A stretch of DNA of 10,847 bases from Candidatus Krumholzibacteriota bacterium (GCA_016926065.1 JAFGPI010000117.1:1-10847), one strand, 5' to 3'. Positions 2,515 to 10,847 are shown, numbered from the stretch's first letter. The notes: a model not told the origin generated them from the letters alone. Numbers and translations are program-made.

Positions 2515-3357
2515 TTACACTCCCTTATCAACGGAGGAGGGCTCCGTCATGGTCTCGATGAGGCGGCTGGAGATATGAAAATCGCCCAGCAGGCTGGCCA
2601 GGGAGACCCCTTTGCGCAAGAAGGGAAATTCGATAAGCCGGGGAGGGGCGGCCGGCTCCAGCACCACGTTCTGTATTAAATCCCCGCACTGTTGAATGGC
2701 GTCGGGCAGGGTGGAGATGAATATGTAATCGATCAGGGAAACCGCGTCGGCGGCGTGCAGCACGCACCTCACCTGGTGACCGGGCTGGTTCAAGCGCGCT
2801 ATCCGGTAGGGAGGCTGCCTGCGGGTGAGCAGGTGGCCTACCTTGAGATTGGCCAGGGCGTTCCGGGAGTGGAAGGCCGGAACATAGATACGGAAGGCCC
2901 CGTAACTTTCTATCCTTTCCATCAGATGGTCGATCTCGCCACCGGAAGGGAGCAGCTTGGATTCTATCGTCTCATCGATGAGCCTGGTCCGTTTAACCTG
3001 GAAATCTATCCCCACCGTTTCCACGAAGGGTAATTCCGGTTCCGGCTTTTCCTTCTCCAGCCCGGTGGAGGCGATGATGCGGGTGGCGTCGGTCAGCCGG
3101 GTCAGGGAGCCGCGCATCAGGCTCCGGAGCTTGGCTCTATCTATTTCCACCACCCAGAAGGGAAGCCAGATCGTCTCTTCCGCCTCGCAGTCCGCTGCCT
3201 GGGCGCGGAAAACGGATACCGGGGCGAGTCCTTCCTCGGTTATGATCTGGTAGGAAAAACAGGTTCCGCATTGAAAGGTGACGAACTGTCCCCTAACCGG
3301 GAGTTCCGCTCCGCAGTTGATGCATTTCAGGGGACGCACCGTGATATCTCCGCTCAT
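2515..3357 (-). CDS. Soluble N-terminal zinc-ribbon protein (paralog D of the operon triplet), function unknown
   Basis: ATG directly abuts the stop of the upstream gene (TAG then ATG). SD GGAGGTGA sits 7 nt upstream inside the preceding gene. The N-terminus KCINCGAEL-x11-FQCGTCFS is a CxxC...CxxC zinc ribbon, then the WLPFWVVEIDRAKLRS motif shared with the two upstream genes. No TM segment. Confidence 0.7.
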   Translation of the reverse strand: MSGDITVRPLKCINCGAELPVRGQFVTFQCGTCFSYQIITEEGLAPVSVFRAQAADCEAEETIWLPFWVVEIDRAKLRSLMRGSLTRLTDATRIIASTGLEKEKPEPELPFVETVGIDFQVKRTRLIDETIESKLLPSGGEIDHLMERIESYGAFRIYVPAFHSRNALANLKVGHLLTRRQPPYRIARLNQPGHQVRCVLHAADAVSLIDYIFISTLPDAIQQCGDLIQNVVLEPAAPPRLIEFPFLRKGVSLASLLGDFHISSRLIETMTEPSSVDKGV

Positions 3358-4407
3358 CTACCATTCACCTCCGAACCAGTTCTCCAACCGGCAGGCCATC
3401 CACCGCAGGGGGGGGATGATCTCGCCGTTCTGAACCATGTCGAAAATATAAAGAGCCACCGCCGCTATCGGAACCAGGGGAAACCACGTCCCCGCCAGTA
3501 TCGCCCCCAGGGCCGGAACGAAAAAGAGAGAGCGGACGTTGATCTTTTTACGCAGCGGAAAGTCTCCCCGAATGACGTGGGCGTTGTTGCCGTCTATGGT
3601 GATGGAGTAGATTCTGCCTCCATGCCGGTAACGCAGTATGTACACCGGATAGTAATAGAGGGAGAGATCGTTGCCGAACAGCTTGAAGCGCTGACCGCGA
3701 ACCTTGGAGCCGGGGGGAAAGGTCAACCGGGAAAGATAATTGAATCCATCTTTTTCGGCGTTCTGCATCGGCTTCATGGCCAGGGCTATGGGGAGCTTCT
3801 TTTTCAGGTCGTGATTAAAGATATCCCAGTTGAGAAACTGGGTCTTCAGGGATATTCCCTGCAGGCCCAGATGGCGCAGCGCGCAGGCGGGGGTGCTCCA
3901 ATCGATCTCCTTGAAGATCAGCTTGGAGAAGGGATGATATTCCACCCGGTATGATTTCCGCACCTGGGGTCCGTCCGGTCCGGGAGCGACCACCTCGATC
4001 TCCCTTTTAAAGGCCTTTTCCCCGGCGGCCCATCCCACCAGCCGGCCGTGCATCCTCCAGAAGGGGACATGTATCAGCCGCAGGTCGAGAATGGAGGCGT
4101 GACGCGCCCTGATCCTCCCCTCGGTTTCGCGGGAGAGATAGTGCAGTGCCGCCAAACGGGCCTTTCCGGCGGTGATGGAGGGCTGTAGGATAAATGACCG
4201 GGCGCCCCGGGGCCGGTGGACGTAAAGGGCCGAATGGCAGTATTCGCAGCGCAGGCTCCGCTCTCCCTCGTGCAGGCGGAGGGAACCTCCACAGGTGGGG
4301 CAGCTGATACCGATCGTTTCGGATGATCCGCCGTTAAGGGTAGAGGCGGTGTCGTCCGCTTCCGGACCGATGGCTTCGGAAAGGGTGGTGGTCTCATTTC
4401 CGGCCAT
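3358..4407 (-). CDS. Zinc-ribbon protein with a C-terminal transmembrane anchor (paralog C), function unknown
   Basis: SD AAAGGA is 6 nt before ATG (complement of 4405-4407), which overlaps the upstream gene stop by 14 nt. The zinc ribbon is CPTCGGSL-x11-LRCEYCHS, followed by the IHVPFWRMHGRLVGW motif. The C-terminus is hydrophobic: LFFVPALGAILAGTWFPLVPIAAVALYIF. Confidence 0.7.
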   Translation of the reverse strand: MAGNETTTLSEAIGPEADDTASTLNGGSSETIGISCPTCGGSLRLHEGERSLRCEYCHSALYVHRPRGARSFILQPSITAGKARLAALHYLSRETEGRIRARHASILDLRLIHVPFWRMHGRLVGWAAGEKAFKREIEVVAPGPDGPQVRKSYRVEYHPFSKLIFKEIDWSTPACALRHLGLQGISLKTQFLNWDIFNHDLKKKLPIALAMKPMQNAEKDGFNYLSRLTFPPGSKVRGQRFKLFGNDLSLYYYPVYILRYRHGGRIYSITIDGNNAHVIRGDFPLRKKINVRSLFFVPALGAILAGTWFPLVPIAAVALYIFDMVQNGEIIPPLRWMACRLENWFGGEW

Positions 4408-5098
4408 GAGCTATCCTTTCGCGAACACTGTAGGCGGCAAAACCCAGGGAAGCGGCCGCCCCGATCACCAGGCAGCGTCCCACCCAGCCGTGATCCAATT
4501 TCCCCGCCAGCAGGTAAATGAGCAAAAGGGATAAAGCGGCCAGGATATTGGGGACGCTGAGGGGCGAGGGCCGGGGGGGAGGCAGCTCTTCCGCCTGGAT
4601 GTACAGGCTTTCTCCCAGCACCAATGCTTGCCAGTCCCTTCCGGCCGCCGTGTAGTTCAATCTATAAACCGGCAGGTGGAGCACCTTTTCGGTTTCCGCG
4701 GTAATATTATCGAAAGAAATTATCTTTTCCTCGCCAGCCAGGCTCTCGTCGAAGAAGCAATAATTTCCGGCGGGAGGAAAGGGAAGAGGCCCGGTGCGGT
4801 AAGTGATTCCCGGCGCCGGATAGGCCCTTACCCGTCCCTGCTCGTCCGGGCAGAGCAGATAGGGGAGATAAACAAATTCCACCTTTATGTCCCGGGGCCG
4901 GGCCAGCTTCTTGCCGGTCAGGAAAGATTGCAGGGCATACCGGGCGACCTTATCGTTTCGCTTATGCGGCAGGATCAGGTGCTCGGGTCCGCCTCCCTTT
5001 TCGATGGCCAGGGATGATCCGCAAAAGGAGCAGAAGAGCATCTTCTGCCCCGGGTATATCTCGTTGTCGCCGCCGCAGAGGCTGCATTTAACCTGCAT
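4394..5098 (-). CDS. Zinc-ribbon protein with two C-terminal TM helices (paralog B), function unknown
   Basis: SD AAGGAAG is 3-4 nt before ATG (complement of 5096-5098), which overlaps the SPFH gene stop by 11 nt. The N-terminus is [25 protein letters not shown], a CxxCGG...FCxxCGS zinc ribbon. The VYLPYLL motif follows. The C-terminal hydrophobic helices are [15 protein letters not shown] and [14 protein letters not shown]. Confidence 0.7.
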
Positions 5099-6245
5099 TG
5101 TCTTCCTTTTCCACCTTTTCGCCGCAGCCGGTGCAATATTTGGTTCCCGGGGGCAAAGTAGTCTGGCAATGCGGGCAGGTAAGCCCCGCCCCGAGTTTCT
5201 TGCCGCAGGCCGAGCAGAACTTCGCTTCCGGGGGCAACTCGGCCGCGCAGGACGGACAGCGGTTCATGGTGATCAGCTGGGTTCCGCAATTCTGGCAGAA
5301 ACGTGAATCGGCGATTACCTCGTTGTGGCACCGGGGACACCGGAGCATCTGCACGGTGGCGGTGGTCACGCCCGCTTGCCCCGTATCCACGCTGCGGGCC
5401 AGCATTCCCGGTATCATCATGCCCAGTCCGGCTCCCACTCCCACTCCCATTCCGCCGGCCGCGGCCGCGCCGGCCCCGCCTCCTCCGCCGGAAGAGGCGG
5501 CATCCCCCATGGCCTTGGCGGCCTTGAACTTGAAAAAATCGTCCAGGTTGCCGACCGCCTCCAGGCCGCTCCTTTCGTCGATCATCTTCTGGACCTCGGG
5601 AGGAGGAGTGATCGAGTTGATGAAGAAATCGCTCAACTCCATTCCGTACTTGGAAAAATCGCTTTTCAGGCGGTCCTTGATCTCGACGGCCAGTTCATCG
5701 TAGTACTGCGGCAGATCGAATATGGTATCCAGTTTCTCGCCGAACATATCGTTGATTCTGGCCACCACCACGTCCCGCAGGTATTCACCGATCATTTCGC
5801 TGGAATAAACGCCCTGGGTTCCCACCACCGTGTTGATGAAGAGCACCGGCTCGGTGATCTTGAAGGTGTAAATCCCGAAAGCCCGCAGCCTTACCAGGCC
5901 CAGCTTGCTGTCCTTGAAGGCCACCGGATCCTTGGTGCCCCACTTCTGGTTGAGGAACATCTTCATGTTGATGAAATAGACCTCCGCCCGGAAGGGGCTT
6001 TTAAATCCCCAGGGGAGGGCGAGGATTTTGGTCAGGATCGGCAGGTTCTTGGTGGTCAGGGTGTGCCTTCCGGCGCCGAAGATATCGAGCCCCTTGCCGT
6101 CCTTGAAAAACACGCTACATTGGTTATCGCGGACGATCAACTGGGCGCCCATTTTTATTTCCGCCGAACCCTCCTGGGGAATGCGGTGCGTGATCTCTTC
6201 TCCGCTTTCATCGAACCATTCCAGTACTTCCATGAATTGTGACAT
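5088..6245 (-). CDS. SPFH/Band-7 family protein (COG4260, 'virion core protein'-type SPFH, B. subtilis YdjI-like) with a Gly/Ala-rich linker and a C-terminal triple zinc ribbon
   Basis: SD AGGAGG (complement of 6250-6255) is 4 nt before the ATG. The N-terminus [45 protein letters not shown] and the [16 protein letters not shown] segment are characteristic of this SPFH subfamily. The linker is [27 protein letters not shown]. Three CPxC-x9-10-(F/Y)CxxCG repeats follow. Confidence 0.85.
5091..5339 (-). other. Triple tandem zinc-ribbon tail of the SPFH protein
   Basis: [44 protein letters not shown] and [22 protein letters not shown] are three ~22-aa repeats, each with four Cys. Confidence 0.75.
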
Positions 6246-6511
6246 GCCGCCTCCTGTCGTTATAATTCCCGGCCGGGTATTATTACCAAATTAAGCAAAA
6301 TCTTGTGGTTGCGTGGAACCATAGGTAAACGTGCAAAGTGAATGCCAATCGATGCCGTTTGGGGGAGATGGCGGACCGGTCGGGCTTTCTCCCCGCCGCC
6401 GAACGGAACGGTTGCTATAAGATGTTTATATTCAACTACTTCCACCGGGAGGGCCAGCTGAGGACCGGGGGCGGCCCGGATCGGTCGTAGAGAGAAGATG
6501 TCGGTCCACCG

Positions 6512-6668: not shown

Positions 6669-7892
6669 ATGGGAAACAAGGGCGTGCCGGTTATCATGTA
6701 TCACGGGGTAAGTCCCGGTCATCCCGGTTGGCTGTGGAACCATCTGCTCACCCCGGTGGAGGTGTTCGAGGCCCAGATGTCCCGGTTGCGGGAGGGGGAG
6801 TGGACCGCCATATCCCTGGCCCAACTGTATTCCCATATGTCCCGGAACGCTCCCCTGCCCGAAAAACCGATCGTGCTGACCTTCGACGACGGGTATCTGG
6901 ACAATTGGGTTTACGCCTACCCGATTCTGAAAAAGTACGGTCTCCAGGGAGTAATCTGGATGACCACCGACTTCATCGATCCGCGGCCCGATGCCCGTCC
7001 CAACCTGGATGACTACTGGAACGGCCGGGTGGCCCGGGGGGAGCTCCGGGGAGAGGGATTCCTGTCCCTGGCGGAAATGCGGAAGATGGTCTCCTCCGGA
7101 CATATCGAGATTCAGAGCCATGCCCGGACCCACACCTGGTATTTCCGCGGTCCCCGGATCGTGGATTTTCACCGGCCGAAAGGAGTGGATGGATACATAC
7201 CGCAGCCCTGGTTGGCCTGGAATGCCGCCCCCCAGAGAAAATTCGCCTATCTAGCCGAAGAGTACGAAACCCTGGTGCCCTATGGATCGCCCATCTACGA
7301 GAACGGAAAATCCCTCCAGGTGAAGAGGTATTTTGAGGATGAGGAGCTCACTCGGCTGCTGGTGGATCATGTGCGCCGGGAGGGAGGAGAGCGTTTTTTT
7401 CTCCGCCCGGGATGGCGTAAGGAACTGGAGAGGCTGGTGGCGGAAAATCCTCCCCGGGGCGGACGCCTGGAAAGCGAGGAGGAATACCGGCGGCGGGTCG
7501 AGGATGAATTGCAGGAATCCCGCCGGATCCTCTCCTCCTCCCTCGGCACCGAGGTGAATTTTCTGTGCTGGCCGGGAGCCGGGATCAATGACACCGCCCT
7601 GCGGCTGGCGTCCGAGGCGGGATATCTGGCCACCACCACCCATTATCTGGACCGGAAAAAGCGCAATTGTTTCGGCGAGAATCCCCGCGAGATCAACCGT
7701 ATCTACTGCGGCAGTCCCTGGTTCTGGAGGGGAAAAAGGATTACCGATCACACCGACCCCGGGTTTTTCCTAAGTACCGTGGAGGCCTTCCGGGGAAACC
7801 GGCTCGCCGCCTGGAAAACGCGTTTATTTAAATTTAAATATCTGGTACACTATTATCTCCTTGGGAGTAAAAATGAGATAGGAGTCCGTTGA
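6669..7892 (+). CDS. Polysaccharide deacetylase (NodB homology domain / CE4 family). It has no N-terminal signal peptide and is probably cytoplasmic
   Basis: The N-terminus VPVIMYHGV is the typical start of a NodB domain. The TFDDGY Asp-Asp motif and the H-A-R-T-H (HxxxH) metal-binding motif are present, and NFLCWPGAG is the C-terminal motif region. The gene ends in an ATGA overlap with the next gene. GGAG lies 9 nt upstream of ATG 6669. Confidence 0.8.
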   Translation: MGNKGVPVIMYHGVSPGHPGWLWNHLLTPVEVFEAQMSRLREGEWTAISLAQLYSHMSRNAPLPEKPIVLTFDDGYLDNWVYAYPILKKYGLQGVIWMTTDFIDPRPDARPNLDDYWNGRVARGELRGEGFLSLAEMRKMVSSGHIEIQSHARTHTWYFRGPRIVDFHRPKGVDGYIPQPWLAWNAAPQRKFAYLAEEYETLVPYGSPIYENGKSLQVKRYFEDEELTRLLVDHVRREGGERFFLRPGWRKELERLVAENPPRGGRLESEEEYRRRVEDELQESRRILSSSLGTEVNFLCWPGAGINDTALRLASEAGYLATTTHYLDRKKRNCFGENPREINRIYCGSPWFWRGKRITDHTDPGFFLSTVEAFRGNRLAAWKTRLFKFKYLVHYYLLGSKNEIGVR

Positions 7893-9616
7893 AAATGTTG
7901 CTGCCCCTTGCCCCGTCCCTGGTCAGAAATGTCATTTATCCGGTTTATAGAGGTTTGAGGGGGGACAAGCTGCTGCAGATCCTGCAGGAACTGGAGGAGA
8001 ACCAGTACCTTTCCCCGGAGGAACTGGAGGATATACAGTGGCGGAGGATGTCCGCCTTCCTTGAATATATCGCCAACCACGTTCCCTATTACAGGGAGCT
8101 TTTTGAGCAATCCGGCTGGAAGGCGGAAGATTTTCAGAATCCGACCGATCTGCTGCGGGTCCCTCTTCTGACCAAGGAGATTATCCGCCGGGAGGGAAAG
8201 AGCCTGGTCACCACCGATCCTCTCATCAAGGGGTACGACTCCAACACCGGAGGTTCAACCGGAGAGCCTCTCTATTTCAAGATAGCCAATTCCACCAGCC
8301 CCTACCGCCGGGCCAACACCCAGAGATGCTACCGCATGTGCGGGATAGAGATCGGGGAGAAGCAGGCCTATGTCTGGGGTTTTCCCTTCAATATTCCCCG
8401 GAAGGAGAAGATCAAGTCTTCCTTCCGGAATTATTTCAACAATATCACCTACCTCTCCTCTTTCAATATGTCGGAGCAGGCGATGCGCGACTACGCGCTC
8501 AAGTTAAAGAAATTCAAACCGGCGGTGGTTATCGGATATCCTTCCGCGGTGACCCTTTTCGCCGAATTCTGCCGGGATAATCAAATATCGGGGATCGAAC
8601 CCCGGGCGGTGATTTCCAGCGGGGAGAAAATGTATCCGCCCCAAAGGGAGGTGCTGGAGGAATTCTTCGGCTGCCCGGTCTTCGACCGCTACGGCAGCAA
8701 CGAATTCGCCAATGTGGCGCATGAATGCGACCGGCACAAGGGACTGCACGTTTTCAACGACCTGCTCTACGTGGAGGTGCTGCACGAGAACGGTAGGCCG
8801 GCCGGCCCCGGGGAAGTGGGGGAAATAGTAATAACCGATTTTCTTAACCGTTTCATGCCTTTCGTCAGGTACCGCACCGGGGACATGGCGGTTCAAACCG
8901 ACAGAACCTGTGAGTGCGGCCGGGGCCTGCCCCTGCTGGAACGGATCGAGGGTAGGACCTTCGATACGGTGATGACCAACGACGGAAGATTCATCGGCGG
9001 GTACTTCTGGACCTATCTTTCCCGGGTGGTCCCGGGAGTGAAGCAGTTCCAGGTCGAGCAGAAGCAGAGGAACACGGTGACCTTCCGGATCGTGCCGGGC
9101 CCGCAGTGGGAAGACCAATACCAGGAAAGGATAATAAAGGAAATAGTGGAGAACATGGGCCCGGGAACCAAGGTGAATTTCGAAAAGGTCGCCGAGATTC
9201 CCCTCTCCCCGGCCGGTAAATTCAGATTCATCCTTTCCAAGGTGGAAGAAAGGATGGTGGTGAAGTCGAAGATCCATAAGGCCAGCGTGACCGGCGAGGA
9301 CCGCGAGCGGATAGACTGCATTGTAGTGGATGAGGAAATTCTGGAATTGAGTAATATCGCTCCCTGCGAAAGAGTGCTGATAGTGGACAACGATAACGGC
9401 GCCCGGGTGGAAGCTTTCGTGGTGAAAGGAGAAAGGGGCAGCCAGGAGATAGTAACCTGCGGGGGGGTGGCCCAGCACATTCACGCCGGAGACGAGGTTA
9501 TCATCATGGCCTTTACCTGGTCGGAGGAAACCCACGGACACTTTACCAATATCCTGGTGGACGAATCGAACAAGTTCGTTCGCTACCTTACCGAAAAGGC
9601 GGGGGATAAAATATAG
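7889..9616 (+). CDS. PaaK/CapK/coenzyme-F390-synthetase-family adenylate-forming ligase (aa 1-455) fused to a C-terminal PanD-like double-psi beta-barrel domain (aa 456-575) that lacks the catalytic residues
   Basis: The N-terminus SPEELEDIQWRRMSAFLEYIANHVPYYRELFEQSGWKAEDFQNPTDLLRVPLLTKEII is typical of PaaK-like enzymes. GGSTGEPL is the phosphate-binding motif. The C-terminal 120 aa align gaplessly with the downstream PanD. The start overlaps the deacetylase stop (ATGA). Confidence 0.85.
   Translation: MKMLLPLAPSLVRNVIYPVYRGLRGDKLLQILQELEENQYLSPEELEDIQWRRMSAFLEYIANHVPYYRELFEQSGWKAEDFQNPTDLLRVPLLTKEIIRREGKSLVTTDPLIKGYDSNTGGSTGEPLYFKIANSTSPYRRANTQRCYRMCGIEIGEKQAYVWGFPFNIPRKEKIKSSFRNYFNNITYLSSFNMSEQAMRDYALKLKKFKPAVVIGYPSAVTLFAEFCRDNQISGIEPRAVISSGEKMYPPQREVLEEFFGCPVFDRYGSNEFANVAHECDRHKGLHVFNDLLYVEVLHENGRPAGPGEVGEIVITDFLNRFMPFVRYRTGDMAVQTDRTCECGRGLPLLERIEGRTFDTVMTNDGRFIGGYFWTYLSRVVPGVKQFQVEQKQRNTVTFRIVPGPQWEDQYQERIIKEIVENMGPGTKVNFEKVAEIPLSPAGKFRFILSKVEERMVVKSKIHKASVTGEDRERIDCIVVDEEILELSNIAPCERVLIVDNDNGARVEAFVVKGERGSQEIVTCGGVAQHIHAGDEVIIMAFTWSEETHGHFTNILVDESNKFVRYLTEKAGDKI
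9254..9613 (+). other. Degenerate aspartate 1-decarboxylase (PanD)-like domain inside the ligase ORF
   Basis: KSKIHKASVTGEDRERIDCIVVDEE...NGARVEAFVVKGERGS...GDEVIIMAF aligns without gaps over 84 positions to PanD at 9712-10071. The Gly-Ser pyruvoyl precursor pair is replaced by Asp-Cys, and the Tyr of TY(V/A)I is replaced by Phe (EAFVV). Confidence 0.75.
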
Positions 9617-9645
9617 ATGAAAAATGAGATTCCATGTGATATAAT
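9617..9645 (+). promoter_or_regulatory. Candidate internal promoter for panD with an extended -10 (TGaTATAAT) and a weak -35 (ATGAAA)
   Basis: TG at 9637-9638, one spacer base, then the perfect TATAAT at 9640-9645. ATGAAA at 9617-9622 gives a 17-nt spacer. It lies in the 95-bp gap between the ligase and panD. Confidence 0.35.
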
Positions 9646-9711
9646 AATCGCGCGTGGTGTCTTCTCCCGGCCGAAGGCGCTGGCAGGATAAGATCATCAG
9701 GAGGCCATCCC

Positions 9712-10071
9712 ATGAAACGCCTATTATTGAAATCGATGATTCTCAGGGCTACCGTCACGCAGGCTGATATCCAGTATGTGGGAAGCATAACCATTGACGA
9801 GGATCTTATCGATCAAGCTAATCTCAGTGAGCATGAAAATGTGCATGTGGTCGACCGTACCAACGGCAAGAGGTTGGAAACCTACGTGATCAGGGGGGAA
9901 CGCGGTACCGGGGTTATCTGCATGAACGGCGCTGCCGCCCACCTGATCAACCAGGGTGACCAGGTCGATATCATGGCATTTTCCTGGTCCACCGGTAAGG
10001 CCAATCCCATATTCATTCAGGTCGATGAGAATAACCGGTTTCTTAGATGTCTGGATGAAAAGAGTCTTTAA
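9712..10071 (+). CDS. panD: Aspartate 1-decarboxylase (pyruvoyl-dependent), making beta-alanine from L-aspartate
   Basis: AGGAGG at 9699-9704, 7 nt before ATG. The sequence LKSMILRATVTQADIQYVGSITIDEDLID...NGKRLETYVIRGERGTGVICMNGAAAHLINQGDQVDIMAF keeps Lys9, the Gly24-Ser25 cleavage/pyruvoyl site, Arg54, Thr57 and Tyr58 equivalents of E. coli PanD. Length is 119 aa. Confidence 0.85.
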   Translation: MKRLLLKSMILRATVTQADIQYVGSITIDEDLIDQANLSEHENVHVVDRTNGKRLETYVIRGERGTGVICMNGAAAHLINQGDQVDIMAFSWSTGKANPIFIQVDENNRFLRCLDEKSL

Positions 10072-10109: not shown

Positions 10110-10847
10110 ATGTTTAACAGGAGTATTCGTCTGTTCCGCTTATGGGGAATTCCGGTGGAACTGAATATCAGCTGGGTATTGATCCTGATACTGGTCACCT
10201 GGACCTTCGCCACCAATTATTTTCCTCAGTACTACCCCGGCGTCTTTTCCCCTTCCCGGGCGTGGATTCTCTCTTTTTTCACGGCCCTGCTTTTATTTGT
10301 TTCGATACTGCTGCACGAGTTCAGCCATTCCCTGGTGGCGGTGCGCAGCGGCCTGCCGATCAATAAGATTACCCTGTTCATGTTCGGGGGGGTGGCGCAG
10401 ATGAGCCGGGAGGTGGATAATCCCTCGCTGGAGTTCCGCATGGCGGCCGCCGGTCCGTTGATGACGTTGCTGTTGATAATCGTCATGTATGCCCTGGGGA
10501 TCTTGCTGGGAAGGGTGATTTTTATGGCGGCGTTGTTGAAAACGGTAGCCAGCATCAACGCGGGTATCTTCCTGTTCAATATGTTTCCCGGATTTCCCCT
10601 GGACGGGGGAAGGATTCTCCGGGCCGTGCTATGGCGACGCCAAGGGAGCATTCTCCGCGCCACCAGGACCGCCAGCCGGATCGGGATCGTCTTCGCCTAC
10701 GGCCTGATTATTTTTGGCGCCCTGAATTTAATAATCACTCAAGAGGGGGTGGGGAACCTGTGGATGGTGCTGATCGGTTTTTTCCTGCGGCAGGCGGCCC
10801 GTACCAGCTACGATAGCGTTTTGTACCGATCCCTGCTGAAGAATCTC
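10110..10847 (+). CDS. Site-2 protease family zinc metalloprotease (peptidase M50), 3'-truncated by the window end
   Basis: AGGTGA is 6 nt before ATG 10110. Manual translation is open to the last base. RLFRLWGIPVELNISW is the typical M50 N-terminus, HEFSH is the HExxH zinc site, FNMFPGFPLDGGRIL is the LDG motif, and there are several TM helices. It is not in the ORF track because it is incomplete at the edge. Confidence 0.8.
   Translation, partial: MFNRSIRLFRLWGIPVELNISWVLILILVTWTFATNYFPQYYPGVFSPSRAWILSFFTALLLFVSILLHEFSHSLVAVRSGLPINKITLFMFGGVAQMSREVDNPSLEFRMAAAGPLMTLLLIIVMYALGILLGRVIFMAALLKTVASINAGIFLFNMFPGFPLDGGRILRAVLWRRQGSILRATRTASRIGIVFAYGLIIFGALNLIITQEGVGNLWMVLIGFFLRQAARTSYDSVLYRSLLKNL

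Follow-up and report, generated by a model that had tools for sequence, protein, structure and literature searches.

The window analysed here is a 10,847-nucleotide (nt) stretch of DNA from a Candidatus Krumholzibacteriota bacterium (GCA_016926065.1, JAFGPI010000117.1:1-10847); it contains a compact cassette formed by a CE4-family deacetylase, by an adenylate-forming ligase fused to a non-processing domain resembling aspartate 1-decarboxylase (PanD), here called F, and by a free-standing PanD paralogue, here called S. F and S retain and lack reciprocal sets of the residues that build the PanD active site, and we consider it rather probable that the two form a mixed, mutually dependent decarboxylase. 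The full account, in which this mixed decarboxylase is combined with beta-alanyl transfer to a deacetylated sugar, is proposed tentatively. More tentative still is its strictest form, namely that a pyruvoyl enzyme was split into two obligate partners, one of them welded to the ligase that consumes the product, with beta-alanine being made only there and passed directly into a hitherto undescribed beta-alanyl modification of a glycan. The cassette concerned recurs across Krumholzibacteriota, with further examples in Latescibacterota and Eisenbacteria.

Fused and free PanD paralogues

F matches the Pfam profile Asp_decarbox (PF02261) over amino acids (aa) 455-562 of the fusion, with an E-value of 1.2e-24 and 86.8 bits against a cutoff of 25, and reaches 73 bits against the cutoff of 106 of TIGR00223 panD; S exceeds this curated cutoff, with 124.8 bits, and matches PF02261 with an E-value of 6e-40. 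In a BLASTP alignment of 118 aa with a single gap, the two sequences share 41% identity (E 2e-30), a value that leads us to reject a chance likeness. The initial annotation, made from the sequence alone, had proposed this paralogy on about 40% identity over 84 ungapped positions, and the longer alignment strengthens it; it had also read in F an Asp-Cys and a Phe in place of Gly-Ser and Tyr, with loss of the self-processing site, which is borne out by alignment with E. coli PanD. The numbering of the latter is used throughout; for F, the PanD position equals the fusion aa minus 452.

PanD is a tetramer whose active site is formed between adjacent subunits, and the strictly conserved residues are Lys9, His11, Tyr22, Gly24, Pyr25 (the pyruvoyl residue), Arg54, Thr57, Tyr58, Gly73-Ala75 and Ile86; among them, Lys9 and Arg54 are marked as coming from the other subunit, while Pyr25, Thr57 and Tyr58 carry no such mark (PMC3314653). 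Arg54 acts in trans on the Ala74/Ala75 backbone (PMC6969166), and strands 2-14 and 82-94 lie on the adjacent-subunit side of the pocket (PMC11808261).

Residue frequencies were obtained from 119 homologue clusters of F and from the 120 nearest clusters of S. Lys9 and His11 are present in all the F clusters and in none of the S clusters, which have Met (115), Val (4) or Ile (1) at position 9; Arg54 is common to both (118/119 and 120/120, respectively). Position 24 is occupied by Asp (116) or Glu (3) in F and by Gly in every S, position 25 by Cys, Gly or Ser in F and by Ser in every S, and the Gly24-Ser25 pair is absent from all 119 F clusters. Similarly, position 58 is Phe in 107 F clusters and Tyr in all 120 S clusters, and position 86 is Ile, Ser or Gly in F and invariably Asp in S. 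Tyr22, Asn51, Gly52, Thr57, Asn72 and His77 are each found in 120/120 S clusters; Thr57 is also mostly kept in the F homologues, the F of the window having Ala57 instead. S of the window carries Met, Leu and Asp where PanD has Lys9, His11 and Ile86, and its N-terminus reads KSMILRATV against the K-x-K-x-H of PanD. The pattern holds locus by locus: each paired S lacks Lys9 and each paired F has both Lys9 and His11, the divergent locus L014 included.

The F domain was also searched against 1.84 billion representative proteins, and the best 150 representatives (50% identity) of PanD-like proteins were compared. Among these, canonical PanD almost always reads KHYGSRTYNI at positions 9, 11, 22, 24, 25, 54, 57, 58, 72 and 86, Lys9 is missing only from S-type proteins, and F-type signatures come mostly from members or fragments of the fusion family, a single free-standing protein being the exception. 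This exception, P0245 (L095, 1102-1548), is a PanD-like protein with Lys9, His11, Asp24-Gly25 and Asp86 and no ligase near it; a second free-standing PanD-like protein, P0397 (L096, 7001-7342), has Lys9, Gln11, Gln22, Gly24-Cys25 and Asp86. PanD-like proteins with altered sites extend beyond this cassette, in unrelated contexts.

S retains, in its sequence, the full set of residues that make and use the pyruvoyl group, namely Tyr22, Gly24-Ser25, Thr57, Tyr58 and Asn72-His77. Judged by its residues it is not a canonical PanD, in that it passes the family-level scores but fails at three strictly conserved positions; the initial description of S as a live PanD stands as regards Gly24-Ser25 and Tyr58, and fails as regards Lys9, His11 and Ile86. 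On the alignments, F is a paralogue without catalytic residues that is under purifying selection, since Lys9, His11, Arg54 and Asp24 are invariant although the pyruvoyl precursor is gone, and since conservation in F matches that of the ligase part in the homologue alignment.

Two other explanations of F were discarded. A decaying relic is at odds with the invariance of these four residues and with a conservation equal to that of the ligase, and a sequencing error masking an intact Gly-Ser and Tyr, which the initial annotation had named as a possible objection, is dismissed by the presence of Asp or Glu at position 24 in 119/119 independent homologue clusters. Another objection it had raised, a C-terminal domain unrelated to PanD, is answered by the PF02261 match.

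Because the losses are reciprocal, and Lys9 and Arg54 act in trans in PanD, F and S appear to provide complementary half-sites: in S the pyruvoyl face would survive and the trans face (positions 9, 11 and 86) would be gone, and in F it would be the trans face that survives and the pyruvoyl face (positions 24, 25, 58 and 72) that is gone. S probably requires F for a complete active site. The mixed S/F oligomer is a structural prediction based on this complementary loss and on the published interface geometry, and it assumes that the interface logic of the PanD active site is kept in F and S. The two would join in one mixed ring, most simply in the alternating order S-F-S-F; the interface between the pyruvoyl face of S and the Lys9 face of F would constitute a complete aspartate decarboxylase site, while the reciprocal F:S interface would be a dead site, perhaps blocked through a pairing between Asp24, invariant in F, and Arg54, which S retains. 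By itself S would be an impaired enzyme, and beta-alanine would consequently be made only at the ligase. The idea that F co-assembles with PanD subunits, already advanced in the initial annotation, gains support from the reciprocal pattern. PanD chains that have been crystallised tolerate N-terminal extensions, as indicated by 143-aa tagged chains that match from residue 20 in the PDB sequence search.

Compared with PanD of E. coli and M. tuberculosis (PF02261, TIGR00223), S bears the family signature on both profiles and F on the Pfam profile only, and S keeps Gly24-Ser25, Arg54, Thr57, Tyr58 and Asn72. Unlike the canonical homotetramer, in which each subunit gives both half-sites, S lacks Lys9, His11 and Ile86 and F lacks Gly24-Ser25 and Tyr58; moreover, one paralogue is fused to a ligase, and no pan genes are adjacent. 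Enzymes that need a catalytically dead paralogue are found in trypanosomatids, in the heteromers of S-adenosylmethionine decarboxylase (AdoMetDC) with prozyme and of deoxyhypusine synthase; the deoxyhypusine synthase heterotetramer consists of an impaired and an inactive subunit, and prozyme acts allosterically, relieving autoinhibition (PMC5201418, PMC3663545). AdoMetDC and prozyme resemble S and F in pairing an enzyme with a dead paralogue, and AdoMetDC is likewise pyruvoyl-dependent. Both trypanosomatid systems are eukaryotic; in the present one the dead partner is predicted to complete an interface site directly and is tethered to a downstream enzyme.

The ligase, its distribution and its glycan setting

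As the initial annotation had claimed, an adenylate-forming ligase and a C-terminal PanD-like domain (PF02261, E 1.2e-24) are encoded in one open reading frame (ORF). Residues ~37-420 match adenylate-forming families of the PaaK, F390-synthetase and DVU_1553 type, with every score below the equivalog cutoff; for PaaK itself the scores are far under it (TIGR02155 and NF041878, 77.9 against 646.3 bits and 106.1 against 700). The motifs are a P-loop, TGGSTGEP (aa 120-127), YGSNE (268-272), YRTGD (328-332) and an A10-type Gly443-Lys444, and these ANL motifs fall in invariant or almost invariant columns of 44 aligned homologues. Precomputed Pfam annotation assigns a CapK_C domain (PF27533) to the fusion and to its homologues. 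The nearest solved relatives, also the best matches in both sequence and fold, are Bacteroides BT_0428 and Burkholderia PaaK1 (PDB 4r1l, 2y27), which cover aa ~36-361 at 20-23% identity; the PDB sequence match to 4r1l has an E-value of 5.5e-27, and a Foldseek comparison of the predicted structure with BT_0428/PaaK1 gives E 1.7e-27 with a TM-score of 0.68 on the target. The ligase is thus, on its motifs and matches, an ANL/PaaK-like adenylate-forming enzyme, A10 lysine included, and not PaaK proper; besides the low identity, it differs from PaaK and BT_0428 in having a genomic setting of glycan biosynthesis rather than of phenylacetate catabolism.

The AlphaFold2 model of the fusion has a mean pLDDT of 84.7, with a short low-confidence linker (aa 453-455) between the two parts, and in the model the PanD-like barrel begins ~10 residues past the catalytic-lysine loop. 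The C-terminal tail (aa 560-575, nt 9566-9613), with the pattern N-x-F-V-R-Y-L-T-E-x-A-G-D, is highly conserved, also in the truncated variants described below, and its last residues have a pLDDT of 34; this tail of F could represent an interaction motif.

The fusion is widespread: all 120 homologue clusters listed belong to this ligase family, and 119 of them carry the PanD-like domain. Thirty fusion loci, some of them redundant, were collected by one scan of species-representative genomes and by look-ups of individual proteins. S follows the fusion in 26 of the 27 loci with downstream DNA, which belong to Krumholzibacteriota, Latescibacterota, Eisenbacteria and one metagenome-assembled genome (MAG) labelled Nitrospira, usually after 36-360 nt and, in L014, after 3.7 kb within the same gene cluster; the breadth of the fusion and the adjacency of a free PanD, for which the initial annotation had asked, are both answered positively. 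Each S-type protein looked up is located after a fusion, and PanD is found in 0/64 loci of unfused ligase relatives (≤39% identity). One MAG (loci L018 and L015) has a second, truncated ligase copy of 373 aa (L018, 604-1725), which ends near window aa 355, has no PanD-like domain and is directly followed by an M50 gene; the complete fusion and the free PanD lie on another contig of that MAG.

All F sequences fall into one clade of a neighbour-joining tree and all S sequences into a second; L014 takes the basal position in each, and the two clades branch in parallel. This topology indicates that the F/S pair arose once and was then inherited together. Sequences within S share on average 73% identity and those within F 58%; the averages between groups are 41% for S against F, 49% for S against canonical PanD and 38% for F against canonical PanD. 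In the basal L014 pair F still has Thr57, Tyr58 and Asn72 together with Asp24-Cys25, and S has Ala9 and Phe11, suggesting that the reciprocal losses at positions 24/25 and 9/11 preceded the others.

A CE4 gene stands directly upstream of the ligase in the fused loci. The unfused ligase relatives of other phyla also have a CE4 orthologue (37-44% identity) directly upstream, or near them in several more cases, and in the Wzx/Wzy-type polysaccharide loci L029 and L052 a GT4 glycosyltransferase, CE4 and the unfused ligase follow each other in that order. The order GT4-CE4-fusion-S is found in L001, L087, L088 and L093. The fused cassette lies within Wzx/Wzy-type loci, surrounded by glycosyltransferase genes, in L014, where it stands among Wza-like, Wzc-like, Wzx, Wzy, GT4 and FemAB-like genes, and in L087; in the window itself the CE4 gene is the only glycan gene adjoining the fusion. 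Both these polysaccharide loci encode a FemAB-like Acetyltransf_6 protein (PF13480; L014, 9900-11003, and L087, 10049-11098), for which the amine of a linked amino acid could be a site of extension or a substrate.

Since CE4, which frees amines, adjoins an adenylate-forming ligase, the arrangement suggests re-acylation of a sugar amine, and the joining of a beta-alanine source to the ligase points to a beta-alanyl group. The GT4 enzyme that often precedes the cassette would place an N-acetylated amino sugar, and CE4 would deacetylate it, exposing the amine; in a less certain step, the ligase would adenylate beta-alanine and transfer the beta-alanyl group to this amine. This would yield an N-beta-alanyl amino sugar, either within a lipid-linked repeat unit or as part of another glycoconjugate. 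NodC/NodB/NodA and MshA/MshB/MshC follow the same logic of glycosylation, deacetylation and re-acylation; NodB is a CE4 enzyme and MshB is not, NodA is an acyltransferase and MshC is similar to aminoacyl-tRNA synthetases. The likeness concerns gene logic only, that is GT4, deacetylase and ATP-dependent ligase encoded together, and the ligase families are unlike.

Alternative explanations

Several observations weigh against the split enzyme and its role in ligation. The placing of Lys9 on the trans face depends on one explicit statement (PMC3314653) and one indirect source; moreover, Thr57 is mostly kept in F and Arg54 in S, which is not expected from simple decay of an unused face, and a homotetramer of S with a hydrophobic Met9/Leu11 pocket might still decarboxylate. 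L009 (fusion at 8001-9722) has no S within 8 kb downstream. As regards the glycan, the literature searched yielded no polysaccharide bearing beta-alanyl groups, and the Krumholzibacteriota cassette occupies a conserved, core-like neighbourhood (SPFH/zinc-ribbon cluster, M50 protease usually with CBS, aldo-keto reductase, S9 peptidase and OPT transporter) rather than a variable glycan island. Finally, variant fusions of 496-508 aa (P0119, P0120, P0108 and P0109) have lost most of the C-terminal subdomain of the ligase (window aa ~371-436); they keep the Gly-Lys loop and the PanD-like domain, and two of them, P0120 and P0108, have a degenerate P-loop. At the variant loci L089 (7001-8527) and L091 (7001-8515) there is no CE4 upstream of the versions found, 504-508 aa long, and S and M50 still follow. 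Because lineages with a truncated or degenerate ligase and no CE4 still keep F and S, the pair has value apart from the proposed ligation, and it may be a housekeeping source of beta-alanine. In L009, the gene that follows the fusion in place of S is a GT4 glycosyltransferase, and its F has Gly for Asp29.

Three alternatives were weighed. The ligase-tethered mixed S/F decarboxylase could be retained with the chemistry reversed: a (2-amino) uronic acid of a lipid-linked sugar would be adenylated at its carboxylate by the ligase, and attack by the amine of beta-alanine would give a beta-alanine uronamide; we regard this as unlikely, although it is the strongest of the three. Its model is VpsH of V. 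cholerae, which is described as PaaK/CapK-like and belongs to a Wzx/Wzy pathway; the genetics show that the L-GulNAcA in the lipid-linked VPS disaccharide depends on VpsH for its glycine amide (PMC13463779): glycine is joined via its amine to the uronic acid, the opposite direction to beta-alanyl-AMP and a further point against the latter. Beta-alanine is the next homologue of glycine, the fusion carries a CapK_C domain, and it occurs in the Wzx/Wzy-type loci L014 and L087. VpsH is likened to the ligase by its published description rather than by sequence; it has no fused enzyme supplying the amino acid, and the consulted part of that source mentions no deacetylase partner. Reversed chemistry would give no role to CE4, whose gene overlaps or abuts that of the ligase in a pairing kept in different phyla, and the loci inspected showed no UDP-sugar dehydrogenase. 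For the favoured reading we therefore rank the beta-alanyl-AMP direction, which the initial annotation had proposed, ahead of the uronic-acid-carboxylate direction, with less certainty than we attach to the mixed decarboxylase.

Co-assembly itself is dispensed with if S works on its own as a homotetrameric decarboxylase whose pocket has been remodelled (Met9, Leu11, Asp86) and F is a non-catalytic tetramerisation or ligand-binding domain, for example a sensor of aspartate, beta-alanine or a dicarboxylate. S scores above the panD equivalog cutoff and keeps all the residues of pyruvoyl chemistry, F has retained Lys9 and Arg54, which bind carboxylate, and in most cases Thr57, as fits binding without catalysis, and P0245 is an example of a free-standing Asp24-type protein with no ligase nearby. 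We consider this explanation improbable, and slightly more so than the reversed chemistry, because it leaves unexplained the reciprocal loss and retention between S and F in every lineage, including the deepest branch, the finding of S-type proteins only beside fusions and the co-divergence of the two clades; Lys9, in addition, is conserved in all the canonical PanD-like representatives examined. The least probable of the three makes S and F a housekeeping aspartate decarboxylase for pantothenate and coenzyme A (CoA), with the ligase fusion as a historical or regulatory attachment and no channelling to a glycan. It would account for the core-like neighbourhood in Krumholzibacteriota and for the persistence of F and S where the ligase is truncated or degenerate and CE4 is gone; however, no panB or panC is near the cassette in any locus seen, the catalytic motifs of the ligase are invariant in the great majority of homologues, and the linkage with CE4 and GT4, together with the Wzx/Wzy settings of L014 and L087, indicates glycan chemistry.

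Cassette layout and significance

The features of the window are listed in Table 1. The start of the fusion is more likely the ATG at 7895, giving 573 aa, than the called TTG at 7889, as judged from the homologues, since nearly all of them are 573 aa long and align from residue 3; the genes are tightly packed in either case, with a 4-nt overlap between the CE4 stop and the TTG, or with the ATG placed 2 bases past that stop. The CE4 motifs FDDGY and QSHxxTH (metal and catalytic residues) are kept in 20 orthologues, and no obvious N-terminal signal sequence was seen by eye in the 407-aa protein. Neither panB nor panC is present in the window according to ORF calls and a profile scan, in agreement with the initial annotation; likewise, the window contains no tRNA and no Rfam family. 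Promoter and terminator scans of the window gave nothing beyond consensus-level matches: sigma-70-like sequences were found at 9617-9645 (+), in the 95-nt spacer ahead of S (10/12, with TG), and at 6239-6266 (+), upstream of CE4 (11/12).

Table 1. Coordinates of the features of the window and of the diagnostic residues of F and S (PanD numbering)
Feature	Position (nt)	Strand	Basis or remark
CE4-family (polysaccharide deacetylase-type) enzyme, 407 aa	6669..7892	+	Pfam Polysacc_deac_1, E 7.9e-19; PgaB N-terminal-like
Fusion ORF, PaaK/CapK-like adenylate-forming ligase and PanD-like domain, 575 aa	7889..9616	+	Profile and homologue matches
Ligase part of the fusion, aa 1-446	7889..9226	+	Motifs, PDB sequence match, Foldseek, Pfam CapK_C PF27533
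Fused PanD-like domain F, aa 455-575	9251..9613	+	PF02261 over aa 455-562
F Lys9 (K461)	9269-9271
F His11 (H463)	9275-9277
F Asp24-Cys25	9314-9319		Altered
F Arg54 (R506)	9404-9406
F Ala57-Phe58	9413-9418		Altered
AGGAGG ribosome-binding site	9699..9704	+	7 nt before the start of S; read from the sequence
Free PanD paralogue S, 119 aa	9712..10071	+	PF02261, E 6e-40; TIGR00223
S Met9	9736-9738		Replaced
S Leu11	9742-9744		Replaced
S Tyr22			Kept
S Gly24-Ser25	9781-9786		Kept
S Arg54	9871-9873		Kept
S Thr57-Tyr58	9880-9885		Kept
S Asn72-His77			Kept
S Asp86	9967-9969		Replaced
M50 (site-2 protease-type) membrane peptidase gene, 5′ portion, leaves the window	10110..10847	+	HEFSH motif in the translation
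SPFH/zinc-ribbon cluster	2515-6245	-
SPFH/Band-7 protein with triple zinc-ribbon tail	5088-6245	-
Three zinc-ribbon or uncharacterised membrane-like ORFs, after the SPFH gene	4394-5098, 3358-4407, 2515-3357	-
656-aa protein, N-terminal membrane part, two 4Fe-4S motifs, two CCG cysteine-rich domains	416-2386	+

The M50 gene follows S in most of the Krumholzibacteriota loci seen, usually with a CBS domain, and is absent from the Nitrospira-labelled and Eisenbacteria loci; the peptidase is a conserved neighbour of the cassette, and a functional tie between them is hypothetical. The SPFH/zinc-ribbon cluster is divergently oriented beside the cassette in most Krumholzibacteriota loci. The 656-aa protein looks like a membrane-bound Fe-S protein of the DsrK/HdrD type, apparently unconnected to the PanD cassette.

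No paper on a PaaK-like::PanD fusion, nor any characterised example, was found in the literature searched, and the same applies to papers on pantothenate metabolism in Krumholzibacteriota and to PanD mutants altered at Lys9. Databases label the fusion either "aspartate 1-decarboxylase" or "phenylacetate-CoA ligase", and S "aspartate 1-decarboxylase"; these labels need correction, the fusion being neither of the two plainly and S not being an ordinary panD product. The mixed ring, if it exists, would be, as far as known, the first PanD that is an obligate hetero-oligomer, and it would offer a clean bacterial case of an active site split between paralogues, similar to prozyme, with the dead half fused to the next enzyme of the pathway. 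The widespread pair of CE4 and CapK-like ligase in polysaccharide loci gains a testable role, in which an acetyl group would be removed and another acyl group or amino acid attached in its place, and a new beta-alanine-containing glycan is predicted in these uncultured phyla.

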